This document shows positions 3,861-56,974 of a DNA stretch of 64,000 nucleotides, piece after piece (positions within the stretch are counted from its first letter, which is position 1; every line of letters begins with the position of its first letter). The notes beneath the pieces were generated by a model. The model saw only the letters and a list, made by a program, of their open reading frames with translations. It was not told the DNA's origin and made no database searches. Both the position numbers and the translations under genes were made by a program. The DNA is from Candidatus Omnitrophota bacterium (GTDB lineage: Bacteria; Omnitrophota; Gorgyraeia; Aquiviventales; Aquiviventaceae), in contig JACPAY010000007.1 in the NCBI GenBank assembly GCA_016180575.1, forward strand, positions 1,457 through 65,456, given 5' to 3'.

Positions 3861-3917
3861 ATGAGACAGGGGACAAGGGACAGGGGACATGTCTCCCGTC
3901 TCCTGTCTCATGTCTCC
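3861..3917 (+). repeat. R1 palindromic element, intergenic copy (rplN-rplX spacer)
   Basis: ATGAGACAGGGGACAAGGGACAGGGGAC / ATGTCTCCCGTCTCCTGTCTCATGTCTCC; arms built from 7-nt units GGGGACA and TGTCTCC. Confidence 0.85.
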
Positions 3918-5452: not shown

Positions 5453-5459
5453 CCAGTCT

Positions 5460-5553
5460 TGTGTAATGCGTAACGCGGAATGCGTAATGGGAAGATGCCA
5501 GACAGAGATTTCGGCGTTTCCATTACGCATTACGCATTCCACATTACGCAAAC
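5460..5553 (+). repeat. R5 imperfect palindrome built from TAATGCG/CGCATTA units (rpsH-rplF spacer)
   Basis: TGTAATGCGTAACGCGGAATGCGTAATGGGAA … TTTCCATTACGCATTACGCATTCCACATTACGCA; loop of about 23 nt. Confidence 0.75.
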
Positions 5554-6136: not shown

Positions 6137-6207
6137 TCCTTCGACTCGCTTCGCTCGCTCAGGATCATGGTGAGCAAGGCTCCGGCAGGAGCCGCGTCGA
6201 ACCATGA
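6132..6207 (+). repeat. R2 gene-junction element (rplF stop to rplR start)
   Basis: GATGATCCTTCGACTCGCTTCGCTCGCTCAGGATCATGGTGAGCAAG-GGCTCCGGCAGGAGCC-GCGTCGAACCATGA. Confidence 0.9.
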
Positions 6208-7108: not shown

Positions 7109-7575
7109 TGGACGTCTCCACGATCCCCGCCATGCCGGGCGCCCGCCACCGGCGCAAACGCGTGGGGCGGGGCATCGGATCGGGCCACGGGAAGACCTCG
7201 ACGCGCGGCCAGAAGGGTCAGCGGGCCCGGACCGGCGAGGGCAAGCGGCCCGGGTTCGAGGGGGGGCGCACCCCGCTCATCCGCCGCCTGCCCAAGCGGG
7301 GGATGCGCTACAAGGCGACGGGGCATACGTCCGCCGTTGAAATCGTCAACGTGAGCCAGCTCAACCGCTGCGAAGGGGGAGAGCGGGTCACCCCGGAGCG
7401 CCTGAAGGCGCTCGGCCTCATCAACGATCCGGCCCGGCGGGTCAAGCTGCTGGGCGACGGGACGCTGACCAAGCCGCTGACGATCGTCGTGCACGAGATC
7501 AGCGCCTCCGCGAAGGACAAGGTGCTCAAGGCGGGCGGCGCGGTCGAGCTCATTGACAAGCCACCCACGCGGTGA
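7108..7575 (+). CDS. rplO: 50S ribosomal protein L15
   Basis: In-frame ATG 7108 overlapping the rpsE stop; RKRVGRGIGSGHGKTSTRGQKGQ block typical of L15. Confidence 0.95.
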   Translation: MDVSTIPAMPGARHRRKRVGRGIGSGHGKTSTRGQKGQRARTGEGKRPGFEGGRTPLIRRLPKRGMRYKATGHTSAVEIVNVSQLNRCEGGERVTPERLKALGLINDPARRVKLLGDGTLTKPLTIVVHEISASAKDKVLKAGGAVELIDKPPTR

Positions 7576-8933: not shown

Positions 8934-8935
8934 CC

Positions 8936-9595
8936 GTGCGCATCGTCCTCCTCGGCCCCCCGGGGGCGGGCAAGGGGTCGTTGGCGTCGCTCTATGACAT
9001 CCGTCTGGGGATCGCGCACCTCTCGACCGGGGAGATCTTCCGGCAGGAGATCGCGCGCCGCAGCGCCCTCGGACGCCGGGTGCGGCGCTACGTCCTGAGC
9101 GGCCGCCTGGTGCCTGATGCCCTGGTGGTCGAGGTGATGGCGGCCAGGCTTCGGCGCGCGCGGGCTGCGGGGTTCGTCCTGGACGGCTTCCCCCGGACCG
9201 CGGGACAGGCGCAGGGGCTGGACCGGGTCCTCGCGCGGCAGTGGCGGCGGCTCGACGCGGCCGTCTATCTGATCTCGCCGCAGCCGCTGCTGGTCAAGCG
9301 GCTCTCCGGGCGCCGGGTGTGCAGCCGGTGCGGAGCCAACTACCACCTGCGCACCATGCGGCCCAAGCGGGCGGGCCGCTGCGACCGCTGCGGCGGGCGG
9401 CTGACGGTCCGGAAGGACGACCAGCCCCGCATGATCCGCAAGCGGCTGGCGGTGGACCGGAAGGCGGCCGCGCCGCTTGTGGCCTATTACCGGCGCCGCG
9501 GGCTGCTCCATCGGGTCAACGGGGTCGGCAACGTGGAGACGGTGTATCGCCGGACGCTGGCGCTCTTTCGCCGTCATCGCTGGCTGCCATCATGA
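8936..9595 (+). CDS. adk: adenylate kinase (Cys4 lid)
   Basis: Track ORF; GPPGAGKG P-loop; lid CSRCG…CDRCGG. Confidence 0.94.
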   Translation: MRIVLLGPPGAGKGSLASLYDIRLGIAHLSTGEIFRQEIARRSALGRRVRRYVLSGRLVPDALVVEVMAARLRRARAAGFVLDGFPRTAGQAQGLDRVLARQWRRLDAAVYLISPQPLLVKRLSGRRVCSRCGANYHLRTMRPKRAGRCDRCGGRLTVRKDDQPRMIRKRLAVDRKAAAPLVAYYRRRGLLHRVNGVGNVETVYRRTLALFRRHRWLPS

Positions 9596-9598
9596 GGC

Positions 9599-10372
9599 AT
9601 GATCGAGCTCAAAACCCCGAACGAACTTGACGCCATGCGGCGGATCGGACGGATCGTGGCGGGATTGCTTGCGCACCTGGCCGGCTTGGTGCGCCCGGGC
9701 CTGAAGACGAAGGCGCTGGACGAGGCGGCGGCGGCGTACCTCGCGCGCGCCGGGGCCCGCCCGGCCTTCCTGGGCTACCGCGGATTCCCGGCGACCATCT
9801 GCGTCTCGGTGAATGAAGAAGTGGTCCACGGGATCCCGGGGCCGCGGACGATCCGCGACGGCGACCTGGTGAGCCTCGATGTCGGCGGGATCCTCGACGG
9901 CTGGTACGGGGATGCCGCCACCACGGTGCCGGTGGGCTCGCCGTCGCCGCAGGCGCTGCGTCTGACCCGGACCGCCCGGCGGGCGCTCGAGGCGGGCATC
10001 GCTCGCGCCGTCGTCGGCAACCGGGTGTCGGACATCTCGCATGCCGTGCAGAAGGTCGTGGAGGGGGAGGGGTTCCACGTCGTCCGGGAGTTCGTGGGGC
10101 ACGGGATCGGACACGCCCTGCATGAGGATCCGCCGATCCCCAACTTCGGACCGCCGCACATCGGGCCGCGCCTGGCGGCGGGGATGTGCCTTGCGATCGA
10201 ACCGATGGTGACGGTCGGCCGCTCCGAGGTCGAGATTCTGCGCGACGGCTGGACCGCCGTGACCCGGGACCGCTCGCTCGCCGCCCATTTCGAGCACACG
10301 GTCGCGGTGACCGAGCGGGGCCCGGAGGTGCTCACCGCGACGGGGCACGATGCCGAAGGAAGACCTGATTGA
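9599..10372 (+). CDS. map: type I methionine aminopeptidase
   Basis: Track ORF; MetAP-like sequence (…[23 protein letters not shown]…[12 protein letters not shown]…FVGHGIG…HFEHTVAVT). Confidence 0.95.
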
Positions 10373-16177: not shown

Positions 16178-16187
16178 TAGAGCGTTT

Positions 16188-16286
16188 GGCCGCGGGTCCT
16201 GCCGCGCCGCCACCCCGCCGGCTGTCCTCGGCCTCGTCGGCCTGCGGGCAGGCGGCGGGGGCCCCGGCTCCGCGTCACCCGCGGCC
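16188..16286 (+). repeat. R3 99-nt GC-rich element (icd-lipA junction)
   Basis: Termini GGCCGCGGGT…ACCCGCGGCC; near-identical to the copies at 25220 and 56515 (reverse complement). Confidence 0.9.
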
Positions 16287-17111
16287 GTCTGCGAGAGCGC
16301 GCGCTGTCCCAACTTGCACGAGTGCTGGTCCAAGCGGCAGCTCACGTTCATGATCCTGGGCGAGCGCTGCACCCGCAGCTGCCGCTTCTGCGCGGTGGCG
16401 CACGGCCGGCCCGAGCCGGTCGAGGCGGATGAGCCCTGGCGCGTGGCGGAGGCGGTGCGGCGGCTCGGCCTCGTGCACGTCGTCATCACGTCGGTGGCGC
16501 GGGACGACCTCCGGGATGAGGGCGCCGGCCACTTCATCGAGGTCATCCGGACGGTTCGCCGCGAGAACCCAGGCGTGACGGTGGAGATTCTTATCCCGGA
16601 CTTCCACGGCCGGGAGGAGCTGGTGCAGGCGGTCGTCGGGGACGGGCGGCCCGACGTCTTCGCCCACAACGTGGAAACGGTCGAGCGGCTCTCCGGCCTC
16701 CTGCGGCCGCAGGCGGCCTACCGACGGTCGCTGCGCGTGCTCGGCCTCGCCGCCTCGCAGGGCGGGGAGTGCCTGATCAAGTCCGGCCTGATGCTGGGCC
16801 TGGGCGAAACCGCTGAGGAGATGGAACGGACCTTCGAAGACCTGCGCGCGGCCGGCGCCACCCACCTGACCATCGGGCAGTACCTCCGGCCGGACGCCGA
16901 CCACCTGCCGGTGCAGGAGTACGTCAGCCCGGAGCGGTTCGCGGAGTACGAGGCGCTCGCCTACCGCGCGGGGTTTGCGTGGGTGCGGTCCGGCCCATTC
17001 GTCCGCAGCTCCTACCACGCCGCCGAAGGCGTACACATGAGGAGTCCGGTTCCCGCTTTCCTATCGGAGAACTCTGGGAAACCGGGAACCGGACCCGGGA
17101 CTATCGCATGA
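16287..17111 (+). CDS. lipA: lipoyl synthase; initiation codon unresolved, C-terminus runs into repeat R4
   Basis: Track ORF starts at TTG 16314, but the in-frame conserved CESARCPNLHEC (CX4CX5C) begins at 16290. Radical-SAM CTRSCRFC motif present. Frame is open back to 16167 with no ATG/GTG/TTG. Confidence 0.8.
   Translation, partial: VCESARCPNLHECWSKRQLTFMILGERCTRSCRFCAVAHGRPEPVEADEPWRVAEAVRRLGLVHVVITSVARDDLRDEGAGHFIEVIRTVRRENPGVTVEILIPDFHGREELVQAVVGDGRPDVFAHNVETVERLSGLLRPQAAYRRSLRVLGLAASQGGECLIKSGLMLGLGETAEEMERTFEDLRAAGATHLTIGQYLRPDADHLPVQEYVSPERFAEYEALAYRAGFAWVRSGPFVRSSYHAAEGVHMRSPVPAFLSENSGKPGTGPGTIA
17037..17106 (+). repeat. R4 70-nt hairpin element (lipA 3' end / aminotransferase start)
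   Basis: ATGAGGAGTCCGGTTCCCGCTTTCCTATCGGAGAACTCTGGGAAACCGGGAACCGGACCCGGGACTATCG; 12-bp perfect stem GTCCGGTTCCCG/CGGGAACCGGAC. Confidence 0.9.
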
Positions 17112-18385
17112 CACGCCGCATGCCGCTCTCCATCCGCCGCATCCAGCGGCAGCTGCGCGAGCGGACCCGGAGGGAACTGGCGCGGAGCAACCGCCGGCTG
17201 TTCCACGAGGCGAACCGGCTCAAGCGGCTGCCTCTCTACCTCTTCACCATCCTGGATGAGCTCAAGGCCCAAGCGGCGGCGCGCGGGACCGATGTGATCG
17301 ACTTGGGGATGGGCAACCCGGACCTGCCGCCGCCGGCGCACGTCGTCGCCGAGCTGGTCAAGCAGGCGAGGAAGCCGGCGAACCACCGCTACTCCCGGAA
17401 GGGCGGGGATGTCGAGCAGAAGCTGCTGGAGACCATCGCGGCCTGGTACCACCGCAAGTTCCGCGTCTCGCTGGACCCGGGCGCCGAGGTGCTGCCGCTC
17501 ATCGGGTCGAAGGAGGGCATCTCGCACCTCTCGCTGGCATTCCTCAACCACGACGATATCGCGCTCGTGCCGAACCCGACCTACCCGGTGCACTTCAACG
17601 GGGTGGTCATGGCGGGCGGCATCCTGTACAACCTGCCGATCCACGCCGAGACGCACTGGCTGCCGGACCTGCGCGCCATCCCCAAGAGCGTCCTGCGCCA
17701 GTCCAAGCTGCTCTTCCTGAGCTACCCCCATAACCCGACGACGGCGGTGGCGGACCTGCGCTTCTTCAGGGAGGCGGTGGCGTGGGCCCGGGCGCACCGG
17801 ATCATGATCATCCATGACTTCGCGTACTCCGACATCACCTTCGATGGGCTCCGGGCGCCGAGCATCCTCGAGGTCCCGGGGGCGAAAGAGGTGTGCGTGG
17901 AGTTCCACACGCTCTCGAAGTCCTACAGCCTGCCGGGGCTGCGCCTCGGCTTCGGGGTGGGGAACCGGGACGTCCTGGCCTCCCTCGCGAAGACGAAGAG
18001 CTACATCGACTTCGGCATCTTCCGGGCCGTGCAGTGGGCCGCCATCGCCGCCCTGGCCGGCCCCCAGCAGTACGTCCACCGCGCGGTCGCCACGTATGCG
18101 CGGCGGCGCGACCTGGTCGTGGACGGGCTCGCGGGGATCGGCTGGCACGTCCCGAAGCCGAAAGGCACCTTCTACATCTGGACGAAGATCCCGCTCAAGT
18201 TCAACGCCCTGACCTCGCTTGAGTTCGCCACGCTCCTCATGCAGGAAGCCGGCGTGGTCGTCTCCCCCGGCAGCGGGTTCGGGGAGTACGGGGAAGGGTT
18301 TGTCCGCTTCGCGCTCGTCGAGCCCGAGCCCAGATTGCGGGAGGCGATCAAGCGCATCGCGAGGGTCCTGCAGATGGAAGATTGA
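17108..18385 (+). CDS. class I/II aminotransferase (DapL/alanine aminotransferase-like)
   Basis: In-frame ATG 17108 in track ORF 16979..18385; DLGMGNPD…, SYPHNPT…, LSKSYSLPGLRLGF motifs. Confidence 0.8.
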   Translation: MTRRMPLSIRRIQRQLRERTRRELARSNRRLFHEANRLKRLPLYLFTILDELKAQAAARGTDVIDLGMGNPDLPPPAHVVAELVKQARKPANHRYSRKGGDVEQKLLETIAAWYHRKFRVSLDPGAEVLPLIGSKEGISHLSLAFLNHDDIALVPNPTYPVHFNGVVMAGGILYNLPIHAETHWLPDLRAIPKSVLRQSKLLFLSYPHNPTTAVADLRFFREAVAWARAHRIMIIHDFAYSDITFDGLRAPSILEVPGAKEVCVEFHTLSKSYSLPGLRLGFGVGNRDVLASLAKTKSYIDFGIFRAVQWAAIAALAGPQQYVHRAVATYARRRDLVVDGLAGIGWHVPKPKGTFYIWTKIPLKFNALTSLEFATLLMQEAGVVVSPGSGFGEYGEGFVRFALVEPEPRLREAIKRIARVLQMED

Positions 18386-18412
18386 GCGCGGCCTGCGAGA
18401 GGCTGCTGAGCC

Positions 18413-19591
18413 ATGAACGGACGACGGATCCTCTTGATGCACATCACCACCAGCTCCGGCCACCATCGCGCCAGCTGCGCCATCGAGCGGACCGTCAGGG
18501 CGCTCGACCCCTCCGCGACGATCGTCAACCTCGACGCCTTCCAGTTCACCAGCCGCTTCGTCCGCTGGGCGATCACCCGCACCTACACCTCGCTGATCCA
18601 CCACCAACCGGACGTCTGGGAGTACCTCTACGACAACCCCTCGGTCCACCGCCGGCTGCAGTATTTCCGGGCGCTGCTCCACCGCTACCACGCCGCCAAG
18701 CTCCAGCAGGTCATGGAGACGGTGCGGCCCGACGCCATCGCCTGCACCCAGGCCTACCCTTGCGGGGTGGTCGCGGATTTCAAAAAGCAGCACCGCCTGC
18801 GCGTGCCGCTCATCGGCGTGCTGACGGACTACGCGCCGCACCTCTATTGGTTCCATGACACCGTCGACGTGTACGTCGTCCCCTCCGAGCAGGTGAAGCG
18901 GCGCTTCGCCACCCGGGGGGTCGACCCGGCCCGGGTGCGGGCGCTCGGCATCCCCATCGACCCCCGCTTCCATGACCCCGTCGACCGGCAGGCGGCCGCC
19001 AGGCGATTCGGCCTGAACCCCGAGCAGCCGGTGCTCCTCATCATGGGCGGCGGCAGCGGGTTCGGCCAGATGCGGGAGATCGTCCTCAGCCTCGATACGC
19101 TGCCGCATCCCTGCCAGCTCGTCGTCCTCGCCGGGACCAACCGTCCGCTCCTCGCCTGGCTGCAGGGCCAGCGGTTCCGGCACCGAGTGCTGGCCGTCGG
19201 CTACACCGAGGAGGTGCCCGAGCTCATGTCCGTCGCCACGCTGCTCGTCAGCAAGCCGGGCGGCCTGACGACCTCCGAAGCGCTGGCCAAGCACCTGCCG
19301 CTCGTCATCGTCAATCCCATCCCGGGCCAGGAAGCATACAATGCCCGCTTCCTGCTGTCCCAGGGGGCGGCGGTCCAGGCCGCGTCGGCCGCGGCGGTCC
19401 GGCAGCCCGTGCGCGATCTCCTCGACGACCCGGAACAGCTCGAGACGCTGAAGCGGCGGAACGCGGAGCTCGCCCACCCCCGCGCGGCGCCCGCCATCGC
19501 GCGCCTGCTGTGCGAGCTCGCCGACCAGTACCGGGACCGCCCGCGGCCCGAAGCGGACCGCCCGCGGCCCACCGCGGAGGTGCTCTCCTGA
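18413..19591 (+). CDS. GT28-family glycosyltransferase (monogalactosyl/glucosyl-diacylglycerol synthase-like)
   Basis: Track ORF; N-terminal ILLMHITTSSGHHRAS… and C-terminal LVSKPGGLTTSEALAKHLPLVIVNPIPGQE resemble MGDG-synthase/UgtP family. Confidence 0.7.
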   Translation: MNGRRILLMHITTSSGHHRASCAIERTVRALDPSATIVNLDAFQFTSRFVRWAITRTYTSLIHHQPDVWEYLYDNPSVHRRLQYFRALLHRYHAAKLQQVMETVRPDAIACTQAYPCGVVADFKKQHRLRVPLIGVLTDYAPHLYWFHDTVDVYVVPSEQVKRRFATRGVDPARVRALGIPIDPRFHDPVDRQAAARRFGLNPEQPVLLIMGGGSGFGQMREIVLSLDTLPHPCQLVVLAGTNRPLLAWLQGQRFRHRVLAVGYTEEVPELMSVATLLVSKPGGLTTSEALAKHLPLVIVNPIPGQEAYNARFLLSQGAAVQAASAAAVRQPVRDLLDDPEQLETLKRRNAELAHPRAAPAIARLLCELADQYRDRPRPEADRPRPTAEVLS

Positions 19592-25204: not shown

Positions 25205-25219
25205 TCCCTGGACCTGCGT

Positions 25220-25348
25220 GGCCGCGGGTCCTGCCGCGCCGCCACCCCGCCGGCTGTCCTCGGCCTGGTCGGCCTGCGGGCAGGCGGCGGGGGCCCCGGC
25301 TCCCCCGGCCCGCTCCGGCGTGCCGGGGCGGGCGCGTCACCCGCGGCC
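25220..25348 (+). repeat. R3 element, 129-nt variant with nested 30-nt insert
   Basis: Same termini; extra CCCCGGCCCGCTCCGGCGTGCCGGGGCGGG segment (itself a CCCCGGC/GCCGGGG hairpin). Confidence 0.9.
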
Positions 25349-29305: not shown

Positions 29306-30661
29306 ATGTTTTCGAAGATCCTGATCGCCAACCGGGGAGAGATCGCCGTCCGCGTCATCCGGGCCTGCAAGGAGATGGGCATCCGGACGGTCGCGGTCTA
29401 CTCCGAGGCGGACCGGAGCAGCCTCCACGTCCGCCTGGCCGACGAGGCGATCTGCATCGGGGGCCCGAAGCCTGAGCAGAGCTACCTCAATATCCCGGCG
29501 ATCATCAGCGCCGCCGAGATCACGGATGTCGAGGGGATCCACCCGGGCTACGGCTTCCTCTCCCAGAACGCCCACTTCGCGGAGATCTGCGAATCCTGCA
29601 ACATCACCTTCATCGGGCCGCCCCCGCAGGCGATGCAGCTCATGGGCGACAAGCTCGCGGCGAAGGACCTCATGCGGAAGGCCGGCATCCCGATCATCCC
29701 CGGGAGCATGGCCGCGGTCCGCAACAAGGAGGACGCCCTGAAGACCGCCCGGCGCATCCAGTACCCGGTCATCGTCAAGGCGGCGGCGGGCGGGGGCGGG
29801 CGGGGGATGCGGGTGTGCCACAATGACGTCCGGCTCATCAGCGCCCTCATGACCTGCCAGGCGGAGGCCGAGGCCAGCTTCGGCAACCGGGACGTCTTCG
29901 TCGAGAAGTACCTCCCGGAGCCCCGGCACATCGAGTTCCAGATCCTCGCGGACAGGTTCGGCCACACGATCCACCTGGGGGAGCGGGATTGCACGATCCA
30001 GCGGCGCCACCAGAAGCTCGTGGAGGAATCGCCCTCCCCGGCGGTCGACGCGAAGCTCCGGCGGAAGATGGGCGAGCTGTCGGTCCGGGCGGCCAAGGCG
30101 GCCGGGTACGTCTCCGCGGGGACGGTGGAGTTCCTCCTCAGCCGGGACGGGACGTTCTACTTCATCGAGATGAACACCCGCATCCAGGTCGAGCACCCGG
30201 TCACGGAGATGGTGACGGGGCTCGACCTCGTCAAGGAGCAGATCCGGATCGCGGCGGGCGAATCGCTCGGCTATAAACAGGACGACATCGCCCTGGAGGG
30301 GTGGGCGATCGAATGCCGGGTCAACGCGGAAGACCCCTCGAACGGGTTCTCGCCCTGTCCGGGCCGCATCACGGAGTACCAGCCCCCGGGCGGGCGCGGC
30401 ATCCGCGTGGACACGCATGTCTTCGCCGGCTACGACGTGCCCCCGTTCTACGACTCCCTGCTCGCCAAGGTCATCAGCGTCGGGACCTCGCGCGAGGACG
30501 CCATCCGGATCATGCAGCGCGCGCTGGACGAGTTTCTCATCGAGCCGATCCGGACCACGATCCCCCTCCACCGGCAGATCTTCAGCGACCCGACATTCTG
30601 GCGCGGGCAGCTGGCCACCAACTACCTCGATCGGCAACTGCAACTTGGGGAGGCTGAATGA
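29306..30661 (+). CDS. accC: acetyl-CoA carboxylase biotin carboxylase
   Basis: Track ORF; [21 protein letters not shown]… and ATP-grasp blocks. Confidence 0.97.
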
Positions 30662-30735
30662 TCCTTCGACTCGCTTCGCTCGCTCAGGATCATGGTGAGC
30701 AAGTCCCGCCATTGGCGGGACGCGTCGAACCATGA
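30657..30735 (+). repeat. R2 gene-junction element (accC stop to pfk start)
   Basis: AATGATCCTTCGACTCGCTTCGCTCGCTCAGGATCATGGTGAGCAA-GTCCCGCCATTGGCGGGAC-GCGTCGAACCATGA. Confidence 0.9.
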
Positions 30736-31772: not shown

Positions 31773-32341
31773 GCGCCGAGGACACGATCCGGGCGAGCCT
31801 CCGGGAGACCGCCCGGCTCCTGGCGGAGTTCCCGGATGCCCAGACCGCCCGGGTCGCCAAGGCCGCCTCACTCATGGCGGAAGCGGTCCGCTCCGGCCGG
31901 AAGGTCATCTGGTTCGGCAACGGCGGCTCGGCGACGCAGGGCCAGCACATGGCGGCGGAGTTCGTGGGGCGGTTCCGGAAGGAGCGCCGCGCCCTGCCAT
32001 CGATCTCGCTGACCGAGAACATGGCCAGCGTCACCGCGATCGGCAACGACTACGCCTTCGAGCGGATCTTCGCGCGGCAGCTCGAAGGCCTGGGGCAGGC
32101 CGGGGACGCGGCGGTGGGGCTCTCAACCTCAGGGAACTCGCCCAACGTCCTCGAGGGGCTCCGCCAGGCCAAGGCGCTGGGCCTCTCCGCCATCGGCCTC
32201 ACCGGCGGCGACGGTGGGCGCATGGAAGCGCTGTGCGACGTCTGCATCTGCGTGCCCTCGACGGTCACGGCGCACGTCCAGGAAGCCCACCTCGCCATCG
32301 GGCACATCCTCTGCGGGCTGGTGGAAGATGCCATCAAATGA
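31769..32341 (+). CDS. gmhA: phosphoheptose isomerase (SIS domain)
   Basis: Track ORF; [17 protein letters not shown]…, [11 protein letters not shown]…, [12 protein letters not shown] blocks. Confidence 0.9.
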
Positions 32342-32407
32342 GGAGTCCGGTTCCCGCTTTCCCATCGGAGAACTCTGGGAAACCGGGAACCGGACCCGGG
32401 ACTATCG
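32338..32407 (+). repeat. R4 70-nt hairpin element (gmhA stop / hldC start)
   Basis: One substitution relative to the 17037 copy by eye; the gmhA TGA is nt 2-4 of the element. Confidence 0.9.
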
Positions 32408-42647: not shown

Positions 42648-42664
42648 TGGTCGTGTCTCAATTT

Positions 42665-42746
42665 GGCGGGTCCTGCCGCGCCGCCACCCCGTCGGCTGTC
42701 CTCGGCCTTCGCCTGCGGGCAGGCGACGGGGTCCCCGGCTCTGCGT
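42665..42746 (+). repeat. R3 element, degenerate copy lacking intact termini
   Basis: GGCGGGTCCTGCCGCGCCGCCACCCCGTCGGCTGTCCTCGGCCTTCGCCTGCGGGCAGGCGACGGGGTCCCCGGCTCTGCGT. Confidence 0.8.
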
Positions 42747-45212: not shown

Positions 45213-45249
45213 GGAGCAGGAAACAGGGAACCGGACCCGGGACTATTGG
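45209..45249 (+). repeat. R4 element, truncated copy (hom stop / thrC start)
   Basis: ATGAGGAGCAGGAAACAGGGAACCGGACCCGGGACTATTGG; left stem arm missing. Confidence 0.75.
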
Positions 45250-46312
45250 AAACCGGCAATGGCCCGGGGTGATTGAACGCTATCGCGCCTACCTTCCGGT
45301 CTCCCCCGCGACCCCCATCATCACGCTGCTGGAGGGGAACACCCCGCTCATCCACAGCCGCGCGCTGAGCCGCCGGTTGGGGCGGGGGATGTCGGTGTAC
45401 CTCAAGTACGAGGGGATGAACCCCACCGGCTCGTTCAAGGACCGCGGGATGACCGTGGCGATCTCGAAGGCGGTCGAGGCGAAGTCGGTCGCGGTCCTGT
45501 GCGCCTCCACCGGCAACACCTCCGCCTCGGCCAGCGCCTATGCGGCGCGGGCGGGGCTGCGCTCCATCGTCCTCATCCCGAGCGGCGCCGTGGCGCTGGG
45601 CAAGCTCTCGCAGGCGCTCATCCACGGGGCGCGCGTGGTGGTCGTGGACGCGAACTTCGACGCGTGCCTGGCGCTCGTGAAGTCGCTGGCCCAGGGGCAC
45701 CCCGTCACGCTGGTCAACTCCATCAACCCGCACCGCATCGAGGGCCAGAAGACGTGCGCCTTCGAGATCTGCGACGCGCTCGGCCGGGCGCCGGACTACC
45801 ACGTGACGCCCGTGGGCAACGCGGGCAACATCACGGCGCAGTGGAAGGGCTACACGGAGTACCGGCGGCGCGGGCGCATCACGCAGCGGCCCGCCATGCT
45901 GGGCTTTCAGGCCGAGGGCGCCGCCCCCCTGGTGCAGGGCCGCGTCATTAAGCACCCGCGCACGATCGCCACCGCCATCCGGATCGGCAACCCGGCCAGC
46001 TGGCAGGGGGCGCTCGCCGCGGCCGAGGAATCGGGCGGCGCCATCCAGGCGGTGAGCGACCGGCAGATCCTGGAGGCCTACCGCCTCCTCGCGTCAGAGG
46101 ACGGGGTGTTCGTGGAGCCGGCGTCGGCCGCCTCGGTCGCCGGCCTGCTGCGCCTGGCGCAGGCGGGATATTTCAAGAAGCGGGCGACCATCGTCTGCAT
46201 CCTCACCGGACACGGGCTCAAGGACCCCGAGCGCGCCATCAAGAGCATCCGCCTGGCGCGTCCCCTCCCGCCGTCGCTCTCCGCCATCACCAAAGCCGCC
46301 GGCCTGAAGTAA
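45209..46312 (+). CDS. thrC: threonine synthase (start either ATG 45209 inside repeat R4 or GTG 45269)
   Basis: Track ORF; GVIERYRAYLPV…TLLEGNTPL…NPTGSFKDRGM PLP-lysine motif. Confidence 0.92.
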   Translation: MRSRKQGTGPGTIGNRQWPGVIERYRAYLPVSPATPIITLLEGNTPLIHSRALSRRLGRGMSVYLKYEGMNPTGSFKDRGMTVAISKAVEAKSVAVLCASTGNTSASASAYAARAGLRSIVLIPSGAVALGKLSQALIHGARVVVVDANFDACLALVKSLAQGHPVTLVNSINPHRIEGQKTCAFEICDALGRAPDYHVTPVGNAGNITAQWKGYTEYRRRGRITQRPAMLGFQAEGAAPLVQGRVIKHPRTIATAIRIGNPASWQGALAAAEESGGAIQAVSDRQILEAYRLLASEDGVFVEPASAASVAGLLRLAQAGYFKKRATIVCILTGHGLKDPERAIKSIRLARPLPPSLSAITKAAGLK

Positions 46313-50399: not shown

Positions 50400-53219
50400 A
50401 TGTCTGCGCTCCCCCCCCAGTACAACCCCAAGGACGTCGAGGAAGCCCGCTACGCGTGGTGGGAATCCCAGGGCTTCTTCCGCGCCGACCCGGACCCCAA
50501 GCGGAAGCCCTACACCATCGTGATCCCGCCGCCCAACGTGACGGGCATCCTCCACATGGGCCACGCGCTCAACAACACCATCCAGGACATCCTCATCCGG
50601 TTTGCGCGCATGCAGGGGTTCAACGCCCTCTGGGTCCCGGGCACCGACCATGCCGGGATCGCCACCCAAAACGTCGTGGAGAAGGCGCTGGCCAAGGAAG
50701 GGAAGCGCCGGCAGGACCTGGGGCGCGAGGCGTTCCTCAAGCGCGTCTGGGAGTGGAAGGAGCAGTACGGCAACACGATCCTGTACCAGCTCAAGCGCCT
50801 CGGCGCCTCCTGCGACTGGCGGCGGACCCGGTTCACGATGGACGAGGGGCTCTCCGAAGCGGTCCTCGAGGTGTTCGTCCGGCTCTATGAGAAGGGGCTG
50901 ATCTACCGCGGGAACTACATCATCAACTGGTGCCCCCGGTGCCAGACCGCGCTCGCCGACGAGGAGGCGCCGCGCACCGAGACCCAGGGCAAGCTCTACC
51001 ACATCAAATACCCCATTTTGAGACAGGGGACAGGGGACAGGGGACAGGGGAAGACCACACCTGTCTCCCGTCCCATGTCTCCTGTCTCAGCTTTCATCGA
51101 GGTGGCCACGACCCGGCCGGAGACGATGCTGGGCGACACCGCCGTCGCCGTCCACCCGAAGGACAAGCGGTACAAAACGCTCATCGGAAAGCACGCCATC
51201 CTCCCGCTCGTGAACCGGAAGCTCGTCATCATCGCGGACGAGGCGGTGGACCGGGAGTTCGGCACCGGGGCGGTCAAGGTGACGCCGGCCCACGACCCGG
51301 TGGACTTCCAGCTCGGGAAGAAGCACAAGCTCGAGTTCATCAACGTGATGACCGACGACGCGAAGATGACCAATGTGCCGAAGCCCTACGAGGGGCTCGA
51401 CCGGCTCGACTGCCGCAGCAAGCTCATCGTGGACCTCGAGCAGCAGGGGTTCCTCGGCCGGATCGACGAGCACGTGCACAACGTCGGCCACTGCTACCGC
51501 TGCCACACGGCGGTGGAGCCGCGCCTCTCCCCGCAGTGGTTCGTGAAGATGAAGCCGCTCGCCGAGCCGGCGATCAAGGCGGTCAAGCAAGGGACGATTA
51601 AGTTCGTCCCGGCGCGGTGGACCAAGGTGTACCTCAACTGGATGGAGAACATCCAGGACTGGTGCATCAGCCGCCAGATCTGGTGGGGCCACCGGCTGCC
51701 CGTCTACTACTGCGAAAGCTGCCGGCGGAGACAGGAGACAGGAGACAGGAGACAAGCAAAGGCCCAACGTGTCTCCCGTCCCATGTCCCATGTCTCAGAA
51801 CCCGGTGTCATTGTTTCAAAGACGCGGCCGGAGCGGTGCCCAACCTGCGGCGGGACCGAGCTGGCGCAGGACGAGGACGTGCTGGACACGTGGTTCTCCT
51901 CCTGGCTGTGGCCGTTCTCGACGCTCGGCTGGCCGAAGAAGACTAAAGACCTCGCCTACTTCTATCCGACCGACACGCTCGTCACCGCGCAGGAGATCAT
52001 CTTCTTCTGGGTCGCCCGGATGGTCATGGCCGGCTACTTCTGCATGAAGCGGCCGCCGTTCACCACGGTCTCCATCCACGGCACGGTGCGCGACATCACC
52101 GGCAAGAAGATGTCGAAATCGCTCGGCAACATCATCGACCCGCTCGAGATGATCGGCCGCTACGGCACCGACGCGCTGCGCTACACGCTGGTGACCGCCA
52201 CCGCCATCGGCCAGGACATCTTCCTCTCGGAGGAGCGGTTCGCCGCCGGCCGCAACTTCGCCAACAAGCTCTGGAACGCCACCCGCTTCGTGCTCGCGCA
52301 GGACGGAATCGAAAAGTACCGGGTACTTCCCAAAGCGGGAAAAGTACCCGGTACTTTTTCAGTAGCGGACCGGTGGATCCTCTCGCGGCTCCAGCAGACC
52401 ACCGCCCGCGTCACGAAGTCGCTCGAGGCGTCCCTGTTCAATGACGCGGCCAGCGCGCTCTACGGCTTCCTCTGGCACGACTTCTGCGACTGGTACGTGG
52501 AGATCGCCAAGCACGTGCCGGCCGAGCAGCAGCCCGCCACCCGCGCGATCCTGCGGCACGTCCTTGAGCAGGCGCTGCGGCTGCTCCACCCGGTCATGCC
52601 CTTCGTGACCGAGGAGCTGTGGCAGCATCTGAGACAGGGAACCACCAAGCCACCTGTCTCTCGTCTCATGTCTCATGTCCCAATTTCGATTATGAAGGCG
52701 GAGTGGCCGAAGGTGGAGAAGCGTCTCATCGACCGCGAGGCGGAGCGGCTCTTCGAGCGGCTCCAGGCGGTCATCACCGCCATCCGGACCACGCGGTCTG
52801 AGCTCAACGTCCCGGTGGAGAGCCGGCCGCCGGTGCATCTGGCATCGCCGCAGGCCGAGGTCCGGATGTTTTTCGAGATCCACCGCCCGCTCCTCCAGCA
52901 GCTGGCCGCGCTGGGCGACATCAGCGTCGAGGCCAAGCGGCAGGCGGTGCGGCACGCGGCGGCCATGGTGGTGGACGGGGTCGAAGTCCTGATGCCGCTG
53001 GAAGGGCTCATCGACCCGGCGAAGGAGCGCGCGCGGCTCCAGCAGCGGCTCGACGACCTCACGCGGCAGAGGGCCCAGGCGGAGGCCAGGCTCAAGGACC
53101 GGCAGTTCACGACCAAAGCGCCCGCCGAGGTCGTGGAGCAGACCAAGACCCGGCGCGCCGAGCTCCAGGACACCGCCAAGAAGGTGTCCGAGCACCTGGC
53201 CGTGCTCCAGGGGATGTGA
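50400..53219 (+). CDS. valS: valine--tRNA ligase carrying four in-frame repeat insertions
   Basis: Track ORF, 939 aa; HIGH-type PPNVTGILHMGH, KMSKS, TTRPETMLGD, C-terminal coiled coil. Confidence 0.96.
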   Translation: MSALPPQYNPKDVEEARYAWWESQGFFRADPDPKRKPYTIVIPPPNVTGILHMGHALNNTIQDILIRFARMQGFNALWVPGTDHAGIATQNVVEKALAKEGKRRQDLGREAFLKRVWEWKEQYGNTILYQLKRLGASCDWRRTRFTMDEGLSEAVLEVFVRLYEKGLIYRGNYIINWCPRCQTALADEEAPRTETQGKLYHIKYPILRQGTGDRGQGKTTPVSRPMSPVSAFIEVATTRPETMLGDTAVAVHPKDKRYKTLIGKHAILPLVNRKLVIIADEAVDREFGTGAVKVTPAHDPVDFQLGKKHKLEFINVMTDDAKMTNVPKPYEGLDRLDCRSKLIVDLEQQGFLGRIDEHVHNVGHCYRCHTAVEPRLSPQWFVKMKPLAEPAIKAVKQGTIKFVPARWTKVYLNWMENIQDWCISRQIWWGHRLPVYYCESCRRRQETGDRRQAKAQRVSRPMSHVSEPGVIVSKTRPERCPTCGGTELAQDEDVLDTWFSSWLWPFSTLGWPKKTKDLAYFYPTDTLVTAQEIIFFWVARMVMAGYFCMKRPPFTTVSIHGTVRDITGKKMSKSLGNIIDPLEMIGRYGTDALRYTLVTATAIGQDIFLSEERFAAGRNFANKLWNATRFVLAQDGIEKYRVLPKAGKVPGTFSVADRWILSRLQQTTARVTKSLEASLFNDAASALYGFLWHDFCDWYVEIAKHVPAEQQPATRAILRHVLEQALRLLHPVMPFVTEELWQHLRQGTTKPPVSRLMSHVPISIMKAEWPKVEKRLIDREAERLFERLQAVITAIRTTRSELNVPVESRPPVHLASPQAEVRMFFEIHRPLLQQLAALGDISVEAKRQAVRHAAAMVVDGVEVLMPLEGLIDPAKERARLQQRLDDLTRQRAQAEARLKDRQFTTKAPAEVVEQTKTRRAELQDTAKKVSEHLAVLQGM
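51019..51089 (+). repeat. R1 palindromic element, in frame in valS (copy a)
   Basis: TGAGACAGGGGACAGGGGACAGGGGACAGGGGA-AGACCACAC-CTGTCTCCCGTCCCATGTCTCCTGTCTCA; translated LRQGTGDRGQGKTTPVSRPMSPVS. Confidence 0.9.
51727..51796 (+). repeat. R1 palindromic element, in frame in valS (copy b)
   Basis: GAGACAGGAGACAGGAGACAGGAGACA-AGCAAAGGCCCAAC-GTGTCTCCCGTCCCATGTCCCATGTCTCA; translated RQETGDRRQAKAQRVSRPMSHVS. Confidence 0.9.
52311..52360 (+). repeat. R6 palindrome in frame in valS
   Basis: GAAAAGTACCGGGTACTT-13 nt-AAGTACCCGGTACTTTTTC, about an 18-bp stem; translated EKYRVLPKAGKVPGTF. Confidence 0.75.
52630..52680 (+). repeat. R1 palindromic element, short copy in frame in valS (copy c)
   Basis: TGAGACAGGGA-ACCACCAAGCCAC-CTGTCTCTCGTCTCATGTCTCATGTCC; translated LRQGTTKPPVSRLMSHVP. 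Confidence 0.8.
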
Positions 53220-54100
53220 TGTCCGGCCTCAGCCGGGAGGCGGTCCTATCCCTCATCCGTCTCGCGCTGCGCGAGGATCAGGCCGGCCGCGACATCACCT
53301 CAACGGCCGTGCTGCCGGCAACCGCCCGCGCCCGGGCGCGGCTTATCGCGCGGGCGCCGGGCATCCTGGCCGGCGGCCAGGCGGCCGGGTGGGTGTTCCG
53401 CGCGGTGGACCGTCGGGTGCGATACCGCGTCAGACTGCATGACGGGACGGCGACGCGGCCAGGACAGGTGGTCGCGAACCTGGACGGGCCGGCTCGCTCC
53501 ATCTTCGCGGCGGAGCGGACCGCGCTGAACCTGCTGGGCCATCTCTCCGGCATCGCGACGCTCACCCACGCTTATGCCCGACGGGTCCGCGGCACCCGGG
53601 CCAAGGTCTACGACACCCGCAAGACGCTGCCGGGGCTGCGGGCCCTTGAAAAGCACGCGGTCCGCGCAGGCGGGGGGCGCAGCCACCGCGGCAGCCTGGC
53701 CGAGGCGGTCCTCATCAAGACGAACCATCTGAAGGCGCTGGGACAGGGGACAGGGGACAGGGGACAGGGGATCCAAAACGCCATTAAGCGGGCGAAACGC
53801 CGGTTCCCTGGCAAGTTCGTTGAAGTCGAAGTGAGAACGGTGCGCCAATTTCAATCGGCACTGACTGCGCAACCTGACGCCATTTTACTCGACAACATGT
53901 CTCTCCATGACGTCCGACGCGCCGTTCACCTGTCCCATGTCTCGCGTCCCTTGTCTCAAAAGCGGCCTCTGTTGGAGGTTTCAGGAGGCATTACCCTCAA
54001 AAATGTCCGGGCCTACGCCCGCGCGGGCGCGGACCGCATCTCCATCGGCCGGCTGACCCACTCGGCGCCTGCGCTGGACGTCTCGCTGGAAATCGTATGA
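53216..54100 (+). CDS. nadC: nicotinate-nucleotide diphosphorylase (carboxylating) carrying both R1 repeat arms in frame
   Basis: Track ORF; AERTALNLLGHLSGIAT, YDTRKTLPGLR, LIKTNH, EVEV, LLDNM, EVSGGI blocks. Confidence 0.92.
   Translation: MMSGLSREAVLSLIRLALREDQAGRDITSTAVLPATARARARLIARAPGILAGGQAAGWVFRAVDRRVRYRVRLHDGTATRPGQVVANLDGPARSIFAAERTALNLLGHLSGIATLTHAYARRVRGTRAKVYDTRKTLPGLRALEKHAVRAGGGRSHRGSLAEAVLIKTNHLKALGQGTGDRGQGIQNAIKRAKRRFPGKFVEVEVRTVRQFQSALTAQPDAILLDNMSLHDVRRAVHLSHVSRPLSQKRPLLEVSGGITLKNVRAYARAGADRISIGRLTHSAPALDVSLEIV
53741..53770 (+). repeat. R1 left arm alone, in frame in nadC
   Basis: GGACAGGGGACAGGGGACAGGGGACAGGGG; translated GQGTGDRGQG. Confidence 0.85.
53927..53958 (+). 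repeat. R1 right arm alone, in frame in nadC
   Basis: CACCTGTCCCATGTCTCGCGTCCCTTGTCTCA; translated HLSHVSRPLSQ. Confidence 0.8.
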
Positions 54101-56112
54101 TGGACCGTTTCGAGCTCGTCACCGACCTCACGCCGAAGGGCGACCAGCCGGAGGCGATCGAGACACTCACCCAGGGGCTCCGGGAAGGGAAGAAGTTCCA
54201 GACGCTCCTCGGCGTGACCGGCTCGGGCAAGACGTACACGGTCGCGCACGCCATCGCCAACCTCAACAAGCCCACGCTCGTCATCTCGCACAACAAGACG
54301 CTCGCCGCCCAGCTCTACAGCGAGTTCAAGAGCCTCTTCCCGCACAACGCCGTGGAGTACTTCGTGAGCTACTACGACTACTACCAGCCGGAGGCGTACG
54401 TGCCGCAGACCGACACGTACATCGAGAAGGACGCCTCCATCAACGACGACCTGGACCGGCTGCGGCTCTCCGCGACCAGCTCGCTCCTCACCCGTCGCGA
54501 CGTCCTCATCGTGGCGACCGTCTCCTGCATCTACAGCCTCGGCGACCCGGAGGAGTACAAGGAGCAGATGGTGTGGCTCGCGGCGGGCAAGCCCGCCCGG
54601 CGCGACGAGGTGCTCTCGTGGCTCGTGGGCATCCACTACAGCCGCAACGACGTGGACTTCCGGCGCGGCACCTTCCGCGCGCGGGGCGACGTCCTCGACA
54701 TCTTCCCGGCCTACCGGCAGACCGCCTACCGGGTCGAGCTGGCGGACGGGCGCATCGGCCGCATCCGGGAGATCGACCCGCTGACCGGCGACGCGCTGGC
54801 GGAACTCGAGCAGATCGCCATCTACCCGGCCAAGCACTTCGTGACCAACAAGGAGCGCATCGAGGCCGCCCACCAGGGCATCCTCCAGGAGATGGTGGAG
54901 TGCGTGCGCAACTTCCAGGCGCAGGGCCGGATCCTGGAGGCGCAGCGCCTGGAGTCGCGCACCAAGTACGACCTCGAGATGCTGAAGGAGCTGGGCTACT
55001 GCCACGGCGTCGAGAACTACGCGCGCCACCTCTCCGGCCGCGCCCCCGGCTCGCGGCCCAACTGCCTCATCGACTACTTCCCCAAGGACTACCTCGTGGT
55101 CATCGACGAGTCGCACGCCACCGTGCCCCAGATCCGCGGGATGTACGAGGGCGATCGCGCCAGGAAGGAGACGCTGGTCGAGTACGGCTTCCGCCTCCCC
55201 TCGGCGCTCGACAACCGCCCGCAGACGTTCGAGGAGTTCGAGACGCTGCTCAACCAGGTGGTCTTCATCTCGGCCACACCCGGCCCCTATGAATGGAAGC
55301 GCTGCGGCGGCCGGGTGGTCGAGCAGGTCATCCGCCCGACCGGCCTCGTGGACCCCGCCATCACCGTCAAGCCGACCGAAGGGCAGATCGATGACCTCAT
55401 CGCGCAGGTCAGGGGCCGCGCCGGGCGCAAGGAGCGGGTCCTCGTGACGACGCTGACGAAGCGGCTCGCGGAGGACCTGAGCCGGTATCTTGGCGAGGCG
55501 GGGCTGCGGGTCAAGTACCTCCACTCGGAGATCGACGCCATCGAGCGGGTCGAGATCCTGCGCGACCTGCGCAAGGGGGCGTTCGACTGCCTCGTCGGGA
55601 TCAACCTGCTGCGGGAGGGGCTCGACCTGCCCGAGGTGTCGCTCGTCGCCGTCCTCGATGCCGACAAGGAGGGGTTCCTGCGCTCGGCCACGTCGCTCAT
55701 CCAGGTCGCTGGGCGGGCCGCCCGCAACGTGAACGGCGAGGTCATCCTGTACGCGGACCACCAGACCGGCGCGATGCGCCAGATGCTCGAGGAGACCACC
55801 CGCCGCCGGGCGAGGCAGCTTGAGTACAACACGCGCCACCGCATCACCCCCACCACCATCGTCAAGGCGATCCGGGAGGGCATCGAGGTCATGCGGCAGG
55901 CGGAGGCGTTCGCCATCCAGCAGTCCGGCCAGTCGCCGGATGAGCACAACATCCGGCAGGTCCTCTCGGACCTTGAGGACGAGATGCTCGTCTGCGCCAA
56001 GGGGCTGCAGTTTGAGCGCGCCGCCGAGCTGCGCGATGAGATCGTGGCGCTCCGGGACAAATACCACTTGAGCGATGAGCCGAGCAAGCGTCCAGCGCGA
56101 TCCCGAGCTTGA
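54097..56112 (+). CDS. uvrB: excinuclease ABC subunit B
   Basis: Track ORF; GVTGSGKTYT, YFVSYYDYYQPEAY, C-terminal UVR motif (FERAAELRDEI). Confidence 0.97.
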   Translation: MMDRFELVTDLTPKGDQPEAIETLTQGLREGKKFQTLLGVTGSGKTYTVAHAIANLNKPTLVISHNKTLAAQLYSEFKSLFPHNAVEYFVSYYDYYQPEAYVPQTDTYIEKDASINDDLDRLRLSATSSLLTRRDVLIVATVSCIYSLGDPEEYKEQMVWLAAGKPARRDEVLSWLVGIHYSRNDVDFRRGTFRARGDVLDIFPAYRQTAYRVELADGRIGRIREIDPLTGDALAELEQIAIYPAKHFVTNKERIEAAHQGILQEMVECVRNFQAQGRILEAQRLESRTKYDLEMLKELGYCHGVENYARHLSGRAPGSRPNCLIDYFPKDYLVVIDESHATVPQIRGMYEGDRARKETLVEYGFRLPSALDNRPQTFEEFETLLNQVVFISATPGPYEWKRCGGRVVEQVIRPTGLVDPAITVKPTEGQIDDLIAQVRGRAGRKERVLVTTLTKRLAEDLSRYLGEAGLRVKYLHSEIDAIERVEILRDLRKGAFDCLVGINLLREGLDLPEVSLVAVLDADKEGFLRSATSLIQVAGRAARNVNGEVILYADHQTGAMRQMLEETTRRRARQLEYNTRHRITPTTIVKAIREGIEVMRQAEAFAIQQSGQSPDEHNIRQVLSDLEDEMLVCAKGLQFERAAELRDEIVALRDKYHLSDEPSKRPARSRA

Positions 56113-56974
56113 GGCTAGGCTCTCCCGGCACATCGGCGGACGGCCGGTTCACGCGTTCCAACAGGTCGGCTCGACGATGGAGGTGGCGCACCAGCTGGCG
56201 GCTGAGGGCGCGGCGGAGGGCACGCTGGTCGTCGCCGCGCGCCAGGAGCAGGGGAGAGGCCGTCAGGGGCGGACGTGGGCGTCCCCGGAGGGCGGGGCCT
56301 ACTGCTCGCTCATCCTCCGGCCCGCGCGGCCTCCGTCCGAAACCCCGCAGCTCTCGCTGGTCGCCGGACTGGCCGCGGCTGAAGCCATCCGGGACATGGC
56401 CTGCCTCTACCCCGCGATCCGCTGGCCCAACGACCTCCTGCTGAGGGAGAAGAAGGTGGCCGGCATCCTCACTGAACAAAAAGTGCCAGGCTGCTCCGTC
56501 GAACATCCCCGTATGGCCGCGGGTGACGCGGAGCCGGGGCCCCCGCCGCCTGCCCGCAGGCCGAGGAGGCCGAGGACAGCCGACGGGGTGGCGGCGCGGC
56601 AGGACCCGCGGCCCGGCGTGGTCATCATCGGCATCGGGATCAACGTGGCCACCAATCCGGCGCAGCTGCCGGAGGGCTCGACCTCGCTGGCGGCCGAGGG
56701 GGCCCCGCACGTGAGCCGCGAGGAGCTGCTCGCCGGCTGGTGCCGCCGCTTCAGCGCCTGGTACGAGGTGTGGACGCGCCAGGGCTTCGGCCCCATCCGC
56801 GAGGCGCTGCGCCCCTGGATCGGCCTCTTCGGCCACCCGGTGCAGCTCACCGCGGGCTCCGAGCAGCTCCAAGGCACCGCCCAGGATCTCGACGAGTCCG
56901 GCCGCCTCCTTGTGCGCCTCGACTCCGGTGTTCAGCGCGCGTTCGAGATGGGGGAGGTCGCGCTGCTCAGATGA
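56075..56974 (+). CDS. birA: biotin--[acetyl-CoA-carboxylase] ligase (no HTH domain) with in-frame R3 insertion
   Basis: Track ORF; QEQGRGRQGRTWASP motif, IRWPNDLLL…KKVAGIL, IGIGINV. Start ATG 56075 overlaps uvrB by 38 nt. Confidence 0.88.
   Translation: MSRASVQRDPELEARLSRHIGGRPVHAFQQVGSTMEVAHQLAAEGAAEGTLVVAARQEQGRGRQGRTWASPEGGAYCSLILRPARPPSETPQLSLVAGLAAAEAIRDMACLYPAIRWPNDLLLREKKVAGILTEQKVPGCSVEHPRMAAGDAEPGPPPPARRPRRPRTADGVAARQDPRPGVVIIGIGINVATNPAQLPEGSTSLAAEGAPHVSREELLAGWCRRFSAWYEVWTRQGFGPIREALRPWIGLFGHPVQLTAGSEQLQGTAQDLDESGRLLVRLDSGVQRAFEMGEVALLR
56515..56613 (-). repeat. R3 99-nt element, inverted orientation, in frame inside birA
   Basis: Reverse complement matches the 16188 copy; exactly 99 nt between GGCCGCGGGT and ACCCGCGGCC. 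Confidence 0.9.

Follow-up and report, generated by a model that had tools for sequence, protein, structure and literature searches.

Introduction

Rickettsia palindromic elements (RPE) are palindromic repeats that sit in frame within protein-coding genes. To our knowledge, palindrome halves that are split by native coding sequence have not been described for RPEs. A palindrome of exactly this kind is the subject here. It is a copy of a repeat called R1, its halves (arms) are separated by 154 nucleotides (nt), and it is found in nadC, the gene of quinolinate phosphoribosyltransferase. The gene belongs to a Candidatus Omnitrophota bacterium and lies in a stretch of 64,000 nt (contig JACPAY010000007.1 of assembly GCA_016180575.1, positions 1,457 to 65,456 of the forward strand), which we call the window. 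Positions are those of the window unless another sequence is named; the R1 copies, nadC and the parts of nadC are all on the + strand. The arrangement in nadC is probably, though by no means certainly, a split palindrome that is inherited and moves together with a gene module subject to recombination.

Several other systems come close in one respect or another. RPEs themselves are mentioned in two papers (PMC1779305, PMC10969869). Repetitive extragenic palindromes (REP) are, as their name says, extragenic; they measure 20-40 bp and have a GTAG/CGTC head (PMC3733652). Tandem heptamers of bacteria comprise the short tandemly repeated repetitive sequences (STRR) of cyanobacteria, GGGNATC in Xanthomonas and Nostoc, and TAACTGA in Beggiatoaceae (PMC4692102, PMC4679880). 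Finally, intragenic invertons have been described (10.1101/2023.03.11.532203).

The split R1 copy in nadC

In R1, two tandem arrays of heptamers, (GGGGACA)n and (TGTCYCN)n, form a hairpin around a short loop. At 14 places the window matches the heptamer pattern GGGACAGGGGACAGG, as compared with an expectation of 0.35; these matches cluster into four compact hairpins and the two arms in nadC. One compact copy occupies the spacer between rplN and rplX (3862-3917). The others are in valS, the valyl-tRNA synthetase gene; two of these are in frame (51019-51090, QGTGDRGQGKTTPVSRPMSPVS; 51727-51798), while in the third (52630-52690) the left arm has shrunk to about one heptamer, which shows that R1 arms can be lost separately. 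Thus, four of the five R1 sites are within open reading frames (ORFs), and four of the five fall within valS-nadC.

The nadC ORF (53219-54100) encodes a protein identical to P0001, on which the domains PF02749 and PF01729 are found. It has the QRPTase N- and C-terminal domains and the conserved motifs KTNH, EVE, LDN and SGG of NadC, and an AlphaFold model predicts a confident barrel (confidence score pLDDT 87.9). The left arm (53739-53771) is (GGGGACA)x4.5. It is in frame, encodes LGQGTGDRGQG and adds about 8 residues to a typical NadC in the loop after the KTNH strand. The right arm (53926-53958; TGTCCCA TGTCTCG CGTCCCT TGTCTCA) is likewise in frame, encodes HLSHVSRPLSQ and adds about 6-7 residues in the loop before the EVSGG strand. 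The distance from KTNH to EVSGG is 86 residues, as compared with 70-77 in typical NadC proteins of other phyla. In the model the arm-encoded residues form coil between regular elements of the barrel; residues 174-180, from the left arm, are coil with a pLDDT block of 61. Between the arms lies an AT-shifted core of 52 codons (53772-53925; IQNAIKRAK...FVEVEV...LLDNM...RRAV).

An earlier note, made from the letters of this stretch, had placed the arms at 53741-53770 and 53927-53958, about 156 nt apart. Both fall inside the arms found by a repeat finder, which measure 33 nt each, are 79% complementary and are spaced by 154 nt; the peptides it gave, GQGTGDRGQG and HLSHVSRPLSQ, are indeed those read in the nadC frame. 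The note also took the interval for genuine NadC sequence, which is borne out by the presence of FVEVEV and LLDNM and by the two domains, and it rightly maintained that R1 half-sites can exist apart.

The left-arm unit of nadC is identical to that of the compact valS copy at 51027-51048, and the left arm as such (GGGGACA array, TGRGACAGG terminus) is 93-96% identical to the compact copies (family D9). The right arm (TGTCYCN array ending in TGTCTCA) shares 28/33 positions with the right arm of L001, a homologous nadC gene, and 23-25/33 with the compact R1 copies of the window. The outer termini of the nadC unit, TGGGACAGG...CTTGTCTCA, correspond to those of the compact copies. The unit is therefore an R1 in which the loop, 4-16 nt in the compact copies, has been replaced by 154 nt of native coding sequence. 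Of course, inverted repeats of 33 nt and 79% complementarity are not rare by themselves in DNA of 69% G+C, the value of the window, and comparable pairs were found there. What makes the nadC arms significant is that both are R1 halves, not their complementarity itself.

With its five G3-4 tracts and ACA spacers, the left arm (53739-53771) is also a canonical G-quadruplex motif on the coding strand. Other heptamer families that occupy this site in other genomes cannot form one.

Different relatives of core and backbone

A total of 120 NadC homologues was compared. The closest overall are P0002 and P0004, both of them arm-less (L002 is the DNA of P0002, L001 that of P0003). Over the N-terminal 174 residues, P0002 and P0004 share 83% and 78% identity, respectively, with the NadC of the window; P0003, P0005 and P0006, which bear R1-type arm peptides at the same two places, share 60-66%. 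For the 52 inter-arm residues the order is reversed: 75-77% identity to P0003, P0005 and P0006 versus 48-56% to P0002 and P0004. The backbone, in short, has 83% identity to P0002 and 68% to P0003, the core 56% and 77%. Segment and flanks thus differ in their nearest relatives by protein identity, as expected of the mosaic gene that the earlier note had envisaged.

The DNA agrees. Up to about 53740 the gene is 0.75-0.95 identical to L002; the value drops to 0.38-0.62 as far as about 53990 and is 0.83-0.93 thereafter, and third-position identity to L001 peaks at about 53680-53935. The maximum chi-square method, applied to 247 informative sites, delimits a recombinant tract at 53714-53970, which is R1-armed-like in an arm-less-like backbone (L001-like sites 79:15 inside, 33:120 outside; chi2 91.7, reached in 0/300 permutations). 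On either side it ends no more than about 25 nt outside the arms. A reciprocal mosaic also exists: L173 (P0090) has a backbone like that of the armed L174 (P0006; 0.88-0.92 identity), and its module over 53636-53968 is arm-less and L002-like. In the identity matrices, two types of module appear shuffled across backbones.

These comparisons support the view that nadC is a mosaic made by recombination. They show a related R1-armed nadC as the apparent donor of the arm-core-arm unit (53714-53970, perhaps to about 54010), transferred by homologous recombination, and a recipient backbone whose nearest relatives have an arm-less, GC-rich middle module. The junctions flank the arms closely, in the conserved stretches KTNHL and LLEVSGG, and L173 has a similar right junction without any arms. 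Since the arms lie inside the tract and that junction does without them, they are probably passengers, i.e., they travel within the exchanged tract and do not serve as crossover sites. Of the earlier proposal that the segment was replaced by use of the R1 arms as crossover points, the replacement has thus gained support from segment identities and maximum chi-square; the role of the arms has not, as they are inside the tract.

A less biological explanation would be an assembly artefact, the contig having switched between co-occurring strains at the conserved flanks of the module. The data are indeed all metagenomic, the junctions are in conserved stretches, and armed and arm-less alleles co-occur in similar samples. 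An independent look is offered by Logan contig L172 (SRR12113431), which reproduces window positions 52469-54318 over 1850 nt with 3 mismatches, all at 54028-54031; it contains both junctions, with no mismatch at either. Further, the left arm has the exact heptamer unit of the valS copy of this very genome. An artefact would also leave the arms and the AT shift unaffected, and both recur in long NCBI, JGI and ENA contigs. We consider an artefact very unlikely.

The split layout in related genes

Most of the 120 homologues have extra repeat-like peptides at the same two loops. They read like translated complementary heptamer arrays, e.g., FGIRNSEFG/SAFRIPHSAL, SPQSIVDSP/YGLWTMDYGL, GEGSRVKGEG/SPFTTHPSP and GQGAGGRGK/TPHAPRPTP. 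At the DNA level 11 armed genes were checked (window, L001, L174, L083, L084, L085, L177, L175, L176, L089 and L096) by aligning one arm with the reverse complement of the other and by a cross-pairing matrix. In 11/11 the left arm pairs with its own right arm. Duplex energy was dropped as a detector of arms, being confounded by GC content; shuffle z-scores are weak for G-rich/C-rich arms.

Six heptamer families are represented in the 11 genes: GGGGACA, GACACAC/GTCATGG, TTCGGAA, GGGGCGT, GCGTRCA and AGGTGAT. The cross-pairing matrix of ten nadC genes, which covered 8 of the 11 armed genes and five families, gave scores of 10-24 (typically 17-24) within a family and of 3-15 (typically 3-10) between families; pairing of the sixth family was established separately. 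The left arm of nadC in L085 even shares the irregular, non-periodic sequence of two compact copies in its valS. The pair valS-nadC is rich in hairpins in the window and likewise in L083, L085 and L175.

The pattern is not uniform. One-sided arrays are seen in L086, L088 and L106, and L128 has non-complementary arrays at its two nadC sites (1117-1144, GCTTCAG; 1317-1344, GCAATAT). P0002, P0004, P0044, P0048, P0077, P0080, P0090 and P0098 make up an arm-less clade. A scan of metagenome contigs with the cassette peptide yielded mostly distant genes (<=50% identity) together with armed relatives of low GC (L089, L096, L091 and L128). The homologues that best match the window NadC carry the name Candidatus Omnitrophica. 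Taken together, the comparison shows the split layout to be common to a large clade of Omnitrophota-like nadC genes, in which each lineage has its own heptamer family.

Could two separate insertions of R1 or heptamer arrays into permissive loops simply have come to lie near each other, their partner arms lost or never present, with the low GC due to the foreign tract only? The valS copy at 52630-52690, which lacks most of its left arm, the one-sided arrays and those of L128 are what such a coincidence would produce; the same permissive loops of the valyl-tRNA synthetase (ValRS) are hit repeatedly across genomes, and the nadC tract is indeed foreign. Site 1, however, always has a left-type arm and site 2 a right-type arm, and each arm pairs only with its own partner in the 8 genes and five families of the matrix and in the sixth family. 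The AT shift, moreover, is also seen in low-GC genomes and in genes without any sign of recent transfer. On balance, coincidence is quite improbable.

The four surface loops of ValRS are treated in a similar way: heptamer hairpins or arrays occupy them across genomes, with a different heptamer family in each genome (compared were window 50400-53219, L083 1-2817, L084 7310-9988 and L085 7232-9997). The insertion sites are conserved, the inserted sequences turn over.

Composition of the enclosed core

The earlier estimate of about 55% G+C between the arms was accurate: 53771-53926 has 54.5%, the upstream part of nadC 73.3%, and the interval belongs to the lowest 1% of 156-nt windows. Its codons differ correspondingly from those in the rest of nadC. 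Only 59% end in G or C; the figure is 88-90% for the remainder of nadC and reaches 95-96% in the genes valS and uvrB (p=2.9e-13 by Fisher's test; the valS background was computed with repeats removed). Codons that are rare (<4 per 1000) account for 27/69 in the patch and for 4.3% in the background, and they include the AAA, TTA, TTT and CAA to which attention had been drawn before. The idea that the arms bracket the low-GC patch is correct as regards the patch and the higher value upstream. On the other side the patch overshoots the right arm by some 50 nt and ends at about 54010. This AT-shifted tail (53959-54010, KRPLLEVSGGITLKNVR; 59% G/C-ending codons, p=1.9e-5) is unlike both L001 and L002 at third positions. 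Low-GC flanks are absent around the compact R1 copies in valS and, therefore, were rejected as a general trait of R1.

Across genes the shift was measured by subtracting the G+C at third codon positions (GC3) in the remainder of the gene from that in the enclosed core. The difference is -0.31 in the window, -0.23 in L001, -0.27 in L083, -0.12 in L084, -0.38 in L085, -0.28 in L175, -0.32 in L177, and -0.16 in both L089 and L096. It is +0.01 in L176, which has the weakest arms, and +0.02 in the arm-less L002. For L174 a mild dip is evident from the profile only; the arm-less L173 has none. The core is thus AT-shifted in 10/11 armed genes and in neither arm-less relative (L002, L173). The median is -0.23 in the 9 genes classed as armed by script and 0.00 in 88 other NadC genes (Mann-Whitney p=9e-5), the composition controls including distant NadC genes of other phyla among the matches listed in a profile scan of genome contigs.

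A low-GC donor was rejected as the sole cause of such a dip: the genomes behind L089 and L096 have 39-42% GC, yet both genes dip as well, hence a lower-GC donor is not the general cause. Low GC is accordingly not simply a mark of foreign DNA; as far as the genes compared tell, the AT shift goes with the arms, though not exclusively. That the core might be a hidden RNA gene was rejected, too, as the cores of L083, L084 and L085 vary freely at synonymous sites. The arm-less L144, L154 and L157 have in common an AT-rich stretch over LKEILHSKADIILLDNM, which is conserved at the nucleotide level and has a local GC3 of 0.15-0.30.

Stem or switch?

The earlier note had considered that the arms form a long-range stem enclosing part of the mRNA. 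In the RNA fold of 53725-53975 the arms are indeed paired in the predicted minimum-energy structure (-105 kcal/mol, as against -85 on average for shuffled sequences; z=-3.7), and arm complementarity is kept in other lineages; to this extent the stem stands, as a prediction only.

If selected, the stem could be a cis-acting structure of the nadC mRNA that affects translation, decay or RNase III cleavage of the valS-nadC-uvrB transcript, and the AU-rich interior could have been selected to let the long-range stem form and open. The fold, the complementarity in six heptamer families at the same two positions and the association of the interior AT shift with the arms speak for it. The mismatches do not. 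In 8 genes, 9 are G·U in the sense strand, 8 are A·C and 27 are transversions. There is no preference for sense-strand G·U among them, and RNA-type covariation was rejected for this reason and for the prevalence of transversions. The cross-pairing matrix further reveals that complementarity changes with the heptamer family as a whole and not through single base pairs, and it amounts to only 75-88%. The arms match dispersed repeats of the genome, which is unexpected for a gene-specific regulator, and arm-less and one-armed homologues exist. A known RNA family was rejected as well, Rfam yielding zero matches at E<=1 across 53200-54150. A selected stem of this kind is unlikely.

Slippage does not help either. 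Within a gene the heptamers of one arm tend to converge on a unit peculiar to that arm, as in L083 with GACACAC versus the complement of GTCATGG; slippage within arrays therefore erodes complementarity instead of preserving it. The open frame also leaves its trace. The right arm of L089 is a perfect (ATCACCT)x5, whereas its left arm (3021-3055) deviates from a perfect (AGGTGAT)n exactly where an in-frame TGA or TAG would arise, and 13/14 heptamer units examined are stop-free in all frames, compared with about 50% of random heptamer pairs.

An inverton would be a more dynamic device: a recombinase flips the segment between the arms and thereby switches nadC off and on. The geometry is suitable, as inverted repeats of 25-33 bp flank an AT-rich segment of 154-183 bp within an ORF. 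Inversion of the arm-to-arm segment, however, creates stops in 7/8 armed genes, so that the inverted state could only be off; a recoding inverton was rejected on this ground. Moreover, the same arms occur as compact hairpins with loops of 4-16 nt, where there is nothing to invert, and they are imperfect heptamer arrays, not a conserved recombinase core. A sequence in the inverted orientation was not encountered, in searches that were unable to detect one. An inverton is very unlikely. Mismatch pattern, slippage, inversion stops and the missing Rfam match jointly argue against a classical selected RNA stem and a recoding inverton. They agree with a DNA palindrome in which copying renews the complementarity.

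How the arrangement may have arisen

The split palindrome, in the reading that we favour as the probable one, would be an R1 in frame whose loop is made of the central 52 codons of NadC. Its arms would pair within one strand, be it in the mRNA or in DNA that becomes single-stranded during replication or transcription. Their complementarity would not be maintained by compensatory selection of the RNA type; it might rather be restored when one arm serves as template for the other, or a dispersed copy of the family for either, through template switching or gene conversion. Template switching is known to homogenise inverted-repeat arms in coding DNA (PMC8604942, PMC7202029). Independent slippage in each array and selection for an open frame would erode the pairing, and selection at the protein level would trim the arms. 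The looped-out core, being exposed as a single strand, may drift towards A+T. The enzyme presumably tolerates the arms because they encode surface loops.

Several observations weigh against this reading. All sequences are metagenome assemblies, in which strain-level chimeras could mimic mosaics, and the second assembly (L172) may share reads with that of the window. Pairing of the arms in vivo is a prediction only, derived from fold and complementarity. The association of arms and AT shift is imperfect: the one-armed L086 dips, so do some arm-less NadC genes from other groups (L144, L154, L157, L097), and the weakly armed L176 does not. L128 fits independent repeat hot spots better than a single split palindrome. 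Finally, gene conversion alone cannot install a wholly new heptamer family at both sites, and the unrelated families in the same two loops of different lineages are not accounted for.

The latter difficulty would vanish if the split palindrome were not a passive relic but the long-loop substrate of an active process, directed by structure or template, with which Omnitrophota write and rewrite heptamer-array hairpins at fixed sites of housekeeping genes, concentrated in valS-nadC. Unrelated families in the same loops, lasting complementarity and the match to dispersed copies would all follow from such a process. Intragenic genetic elements of this kind would be new, and behind them would stand an enzyme, for which a hairpin-targeting transposase, a repeat-synthesising polymerase, a reverse transcriptase or an invertase could be candidates. 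We deem such a process improbable.

Under the favoured reading, that of an inherited split palindrome, the locus allows two causes of local low GC to be separated, foreign origin, which applies here, and AT drift between inverted repeats, which is seen in enclosed DNA of low-GC relatives also. Should the arms be the cause of the AT drift, these genes would demonstrate how secondary structure shapes mutation and composition within genes. In any case, peptides encoded by repeats affect composition-based calls of horizontal transfer and alignments of Omnitrophota housekeeping proteins.

Neighbouring genes and other repeats

The ATG of nadC overlaps the stop of valS (50400-53219) upstream and its stop the start of uvrB (54097-56112) downstream, which amounts to translational coupling to both. 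Within valS, 52300-52375 is an in-frame palindrome of another family (AAAAGTACCGGGTACTT...AAAAGTACCCGGTACTTTT) that encodes IEKYRVLPKAGKVPGTF, with local GC3 falling to 0.57. Together with the three R1 copies, valS thus contains four in-frame palindromes. The 20.6-kb locus of L175 contains 14 heptamer arrays of several families: seven are in valS (7131-9995), where they form three hairpin pairs and one single array, and one comes just after nadC. An IS1595-type transposase gene is found in L175 at 17833-18720.

A second repeat family of the window, 85-99 nt long with internal inverted arms of 29 nt, has copies at 16187-16286, 25219-25303, 42661-42746 and 56515-56613 that are 96-99% identical; the last of them is inverted and lies inside a birA-like ORF (56075-56974). 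Among further small repeats that are dispersed and 96-97% identical, one of 73 nt is at 17034-17106, 32335-32407 and 45219-45253, and one of 51 nt at 6128-6178 and 30653-30703. A heptamer hairpin of the GCGTAAT type with 35-nt arms of 83% complementarity occupies 5459-5551. The segment 57856-60161 reads groES-groEL-groES, with two diverged groES genes (a 132-nt repeat of 70% identity) and a G+C below that of the surroundings. Exact (GGGGACA)3 arrays are also present in six viral contigs of IMG/VR (L166-L171, 34-68% GC), a heterogeneous and uninformative set; one of them, L170 (68% GC), has the look of an R1-type hairpin, the loop measuring about 20 nt.

Comparison with known systems

RPEs share with R1 the short palindromes in frame in housekeeping genes and the extra surface peptides that the protein tolerates. 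R1, however, is unrelated to them in sequence, is built of tandem heptamers, and its families differ between genomes at the same loops. Like miniature inverted-repeat transposable elements (MITE), R1 has dispersed copies with terminal inverted repeats (TGAGACAGG...CCTGTCTCA), and the nadC unit resembles an inverted repeat-cargo-inverted repeat structure, yet the "cargo" is the resident gene's own core. As to target-site duplication, no direct repeat is shared by the flanks of the four compact R1 copies. Nor did a transposase come to light in the window, which was not screened for such genes. REPs and bacterial interspersed mosaic elements (BIME) differ from R1, which has TGAGACAGG termini, no GTAG/CGTC head and four of its five sites within ORFs.

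The tandem heptamers known from bacteria have the same 7-nt period and typically about four units, and the G-rich left arm of R1 could form a quadruplex, a capacity that most heptamer families of the nadC arms lack. They are direct repeats, mostly intergenic and under-represented in coding DNA, whereas R1 consists of inverted pairs inside ORFs. Intragenic invertons have inverted repeats around a short segment within an ORF, too, but the inverted form of nadC is without an open frame and its arms are copies of a dispersed hairpin repeat.

Literature searches on repeats in Omnitrophota gave nothing relevant, and in our searches we found no description of a palindrome whose halves lie on either side of an essential enzyme's catalytic core, in the same two loops throughout a broad clade. 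In-frame palindromic repeats and mosaic genes are each already known.

Ordinary mosaic genes also have tracts with different nearest relatives and deviating composition, and reciprocal examples. The exchanged module of nadC, by contrast, carries a split palindrome, and its anomaly of composition recurs across lineages and so cannot be put down to the GC of the donor alone. Arms made of heptamer arrays, their split around native coding DNA, conserved position with turnover of families, and an AT-shifted interior: none of the analogues listed here unites these features, as the nadC locus does.

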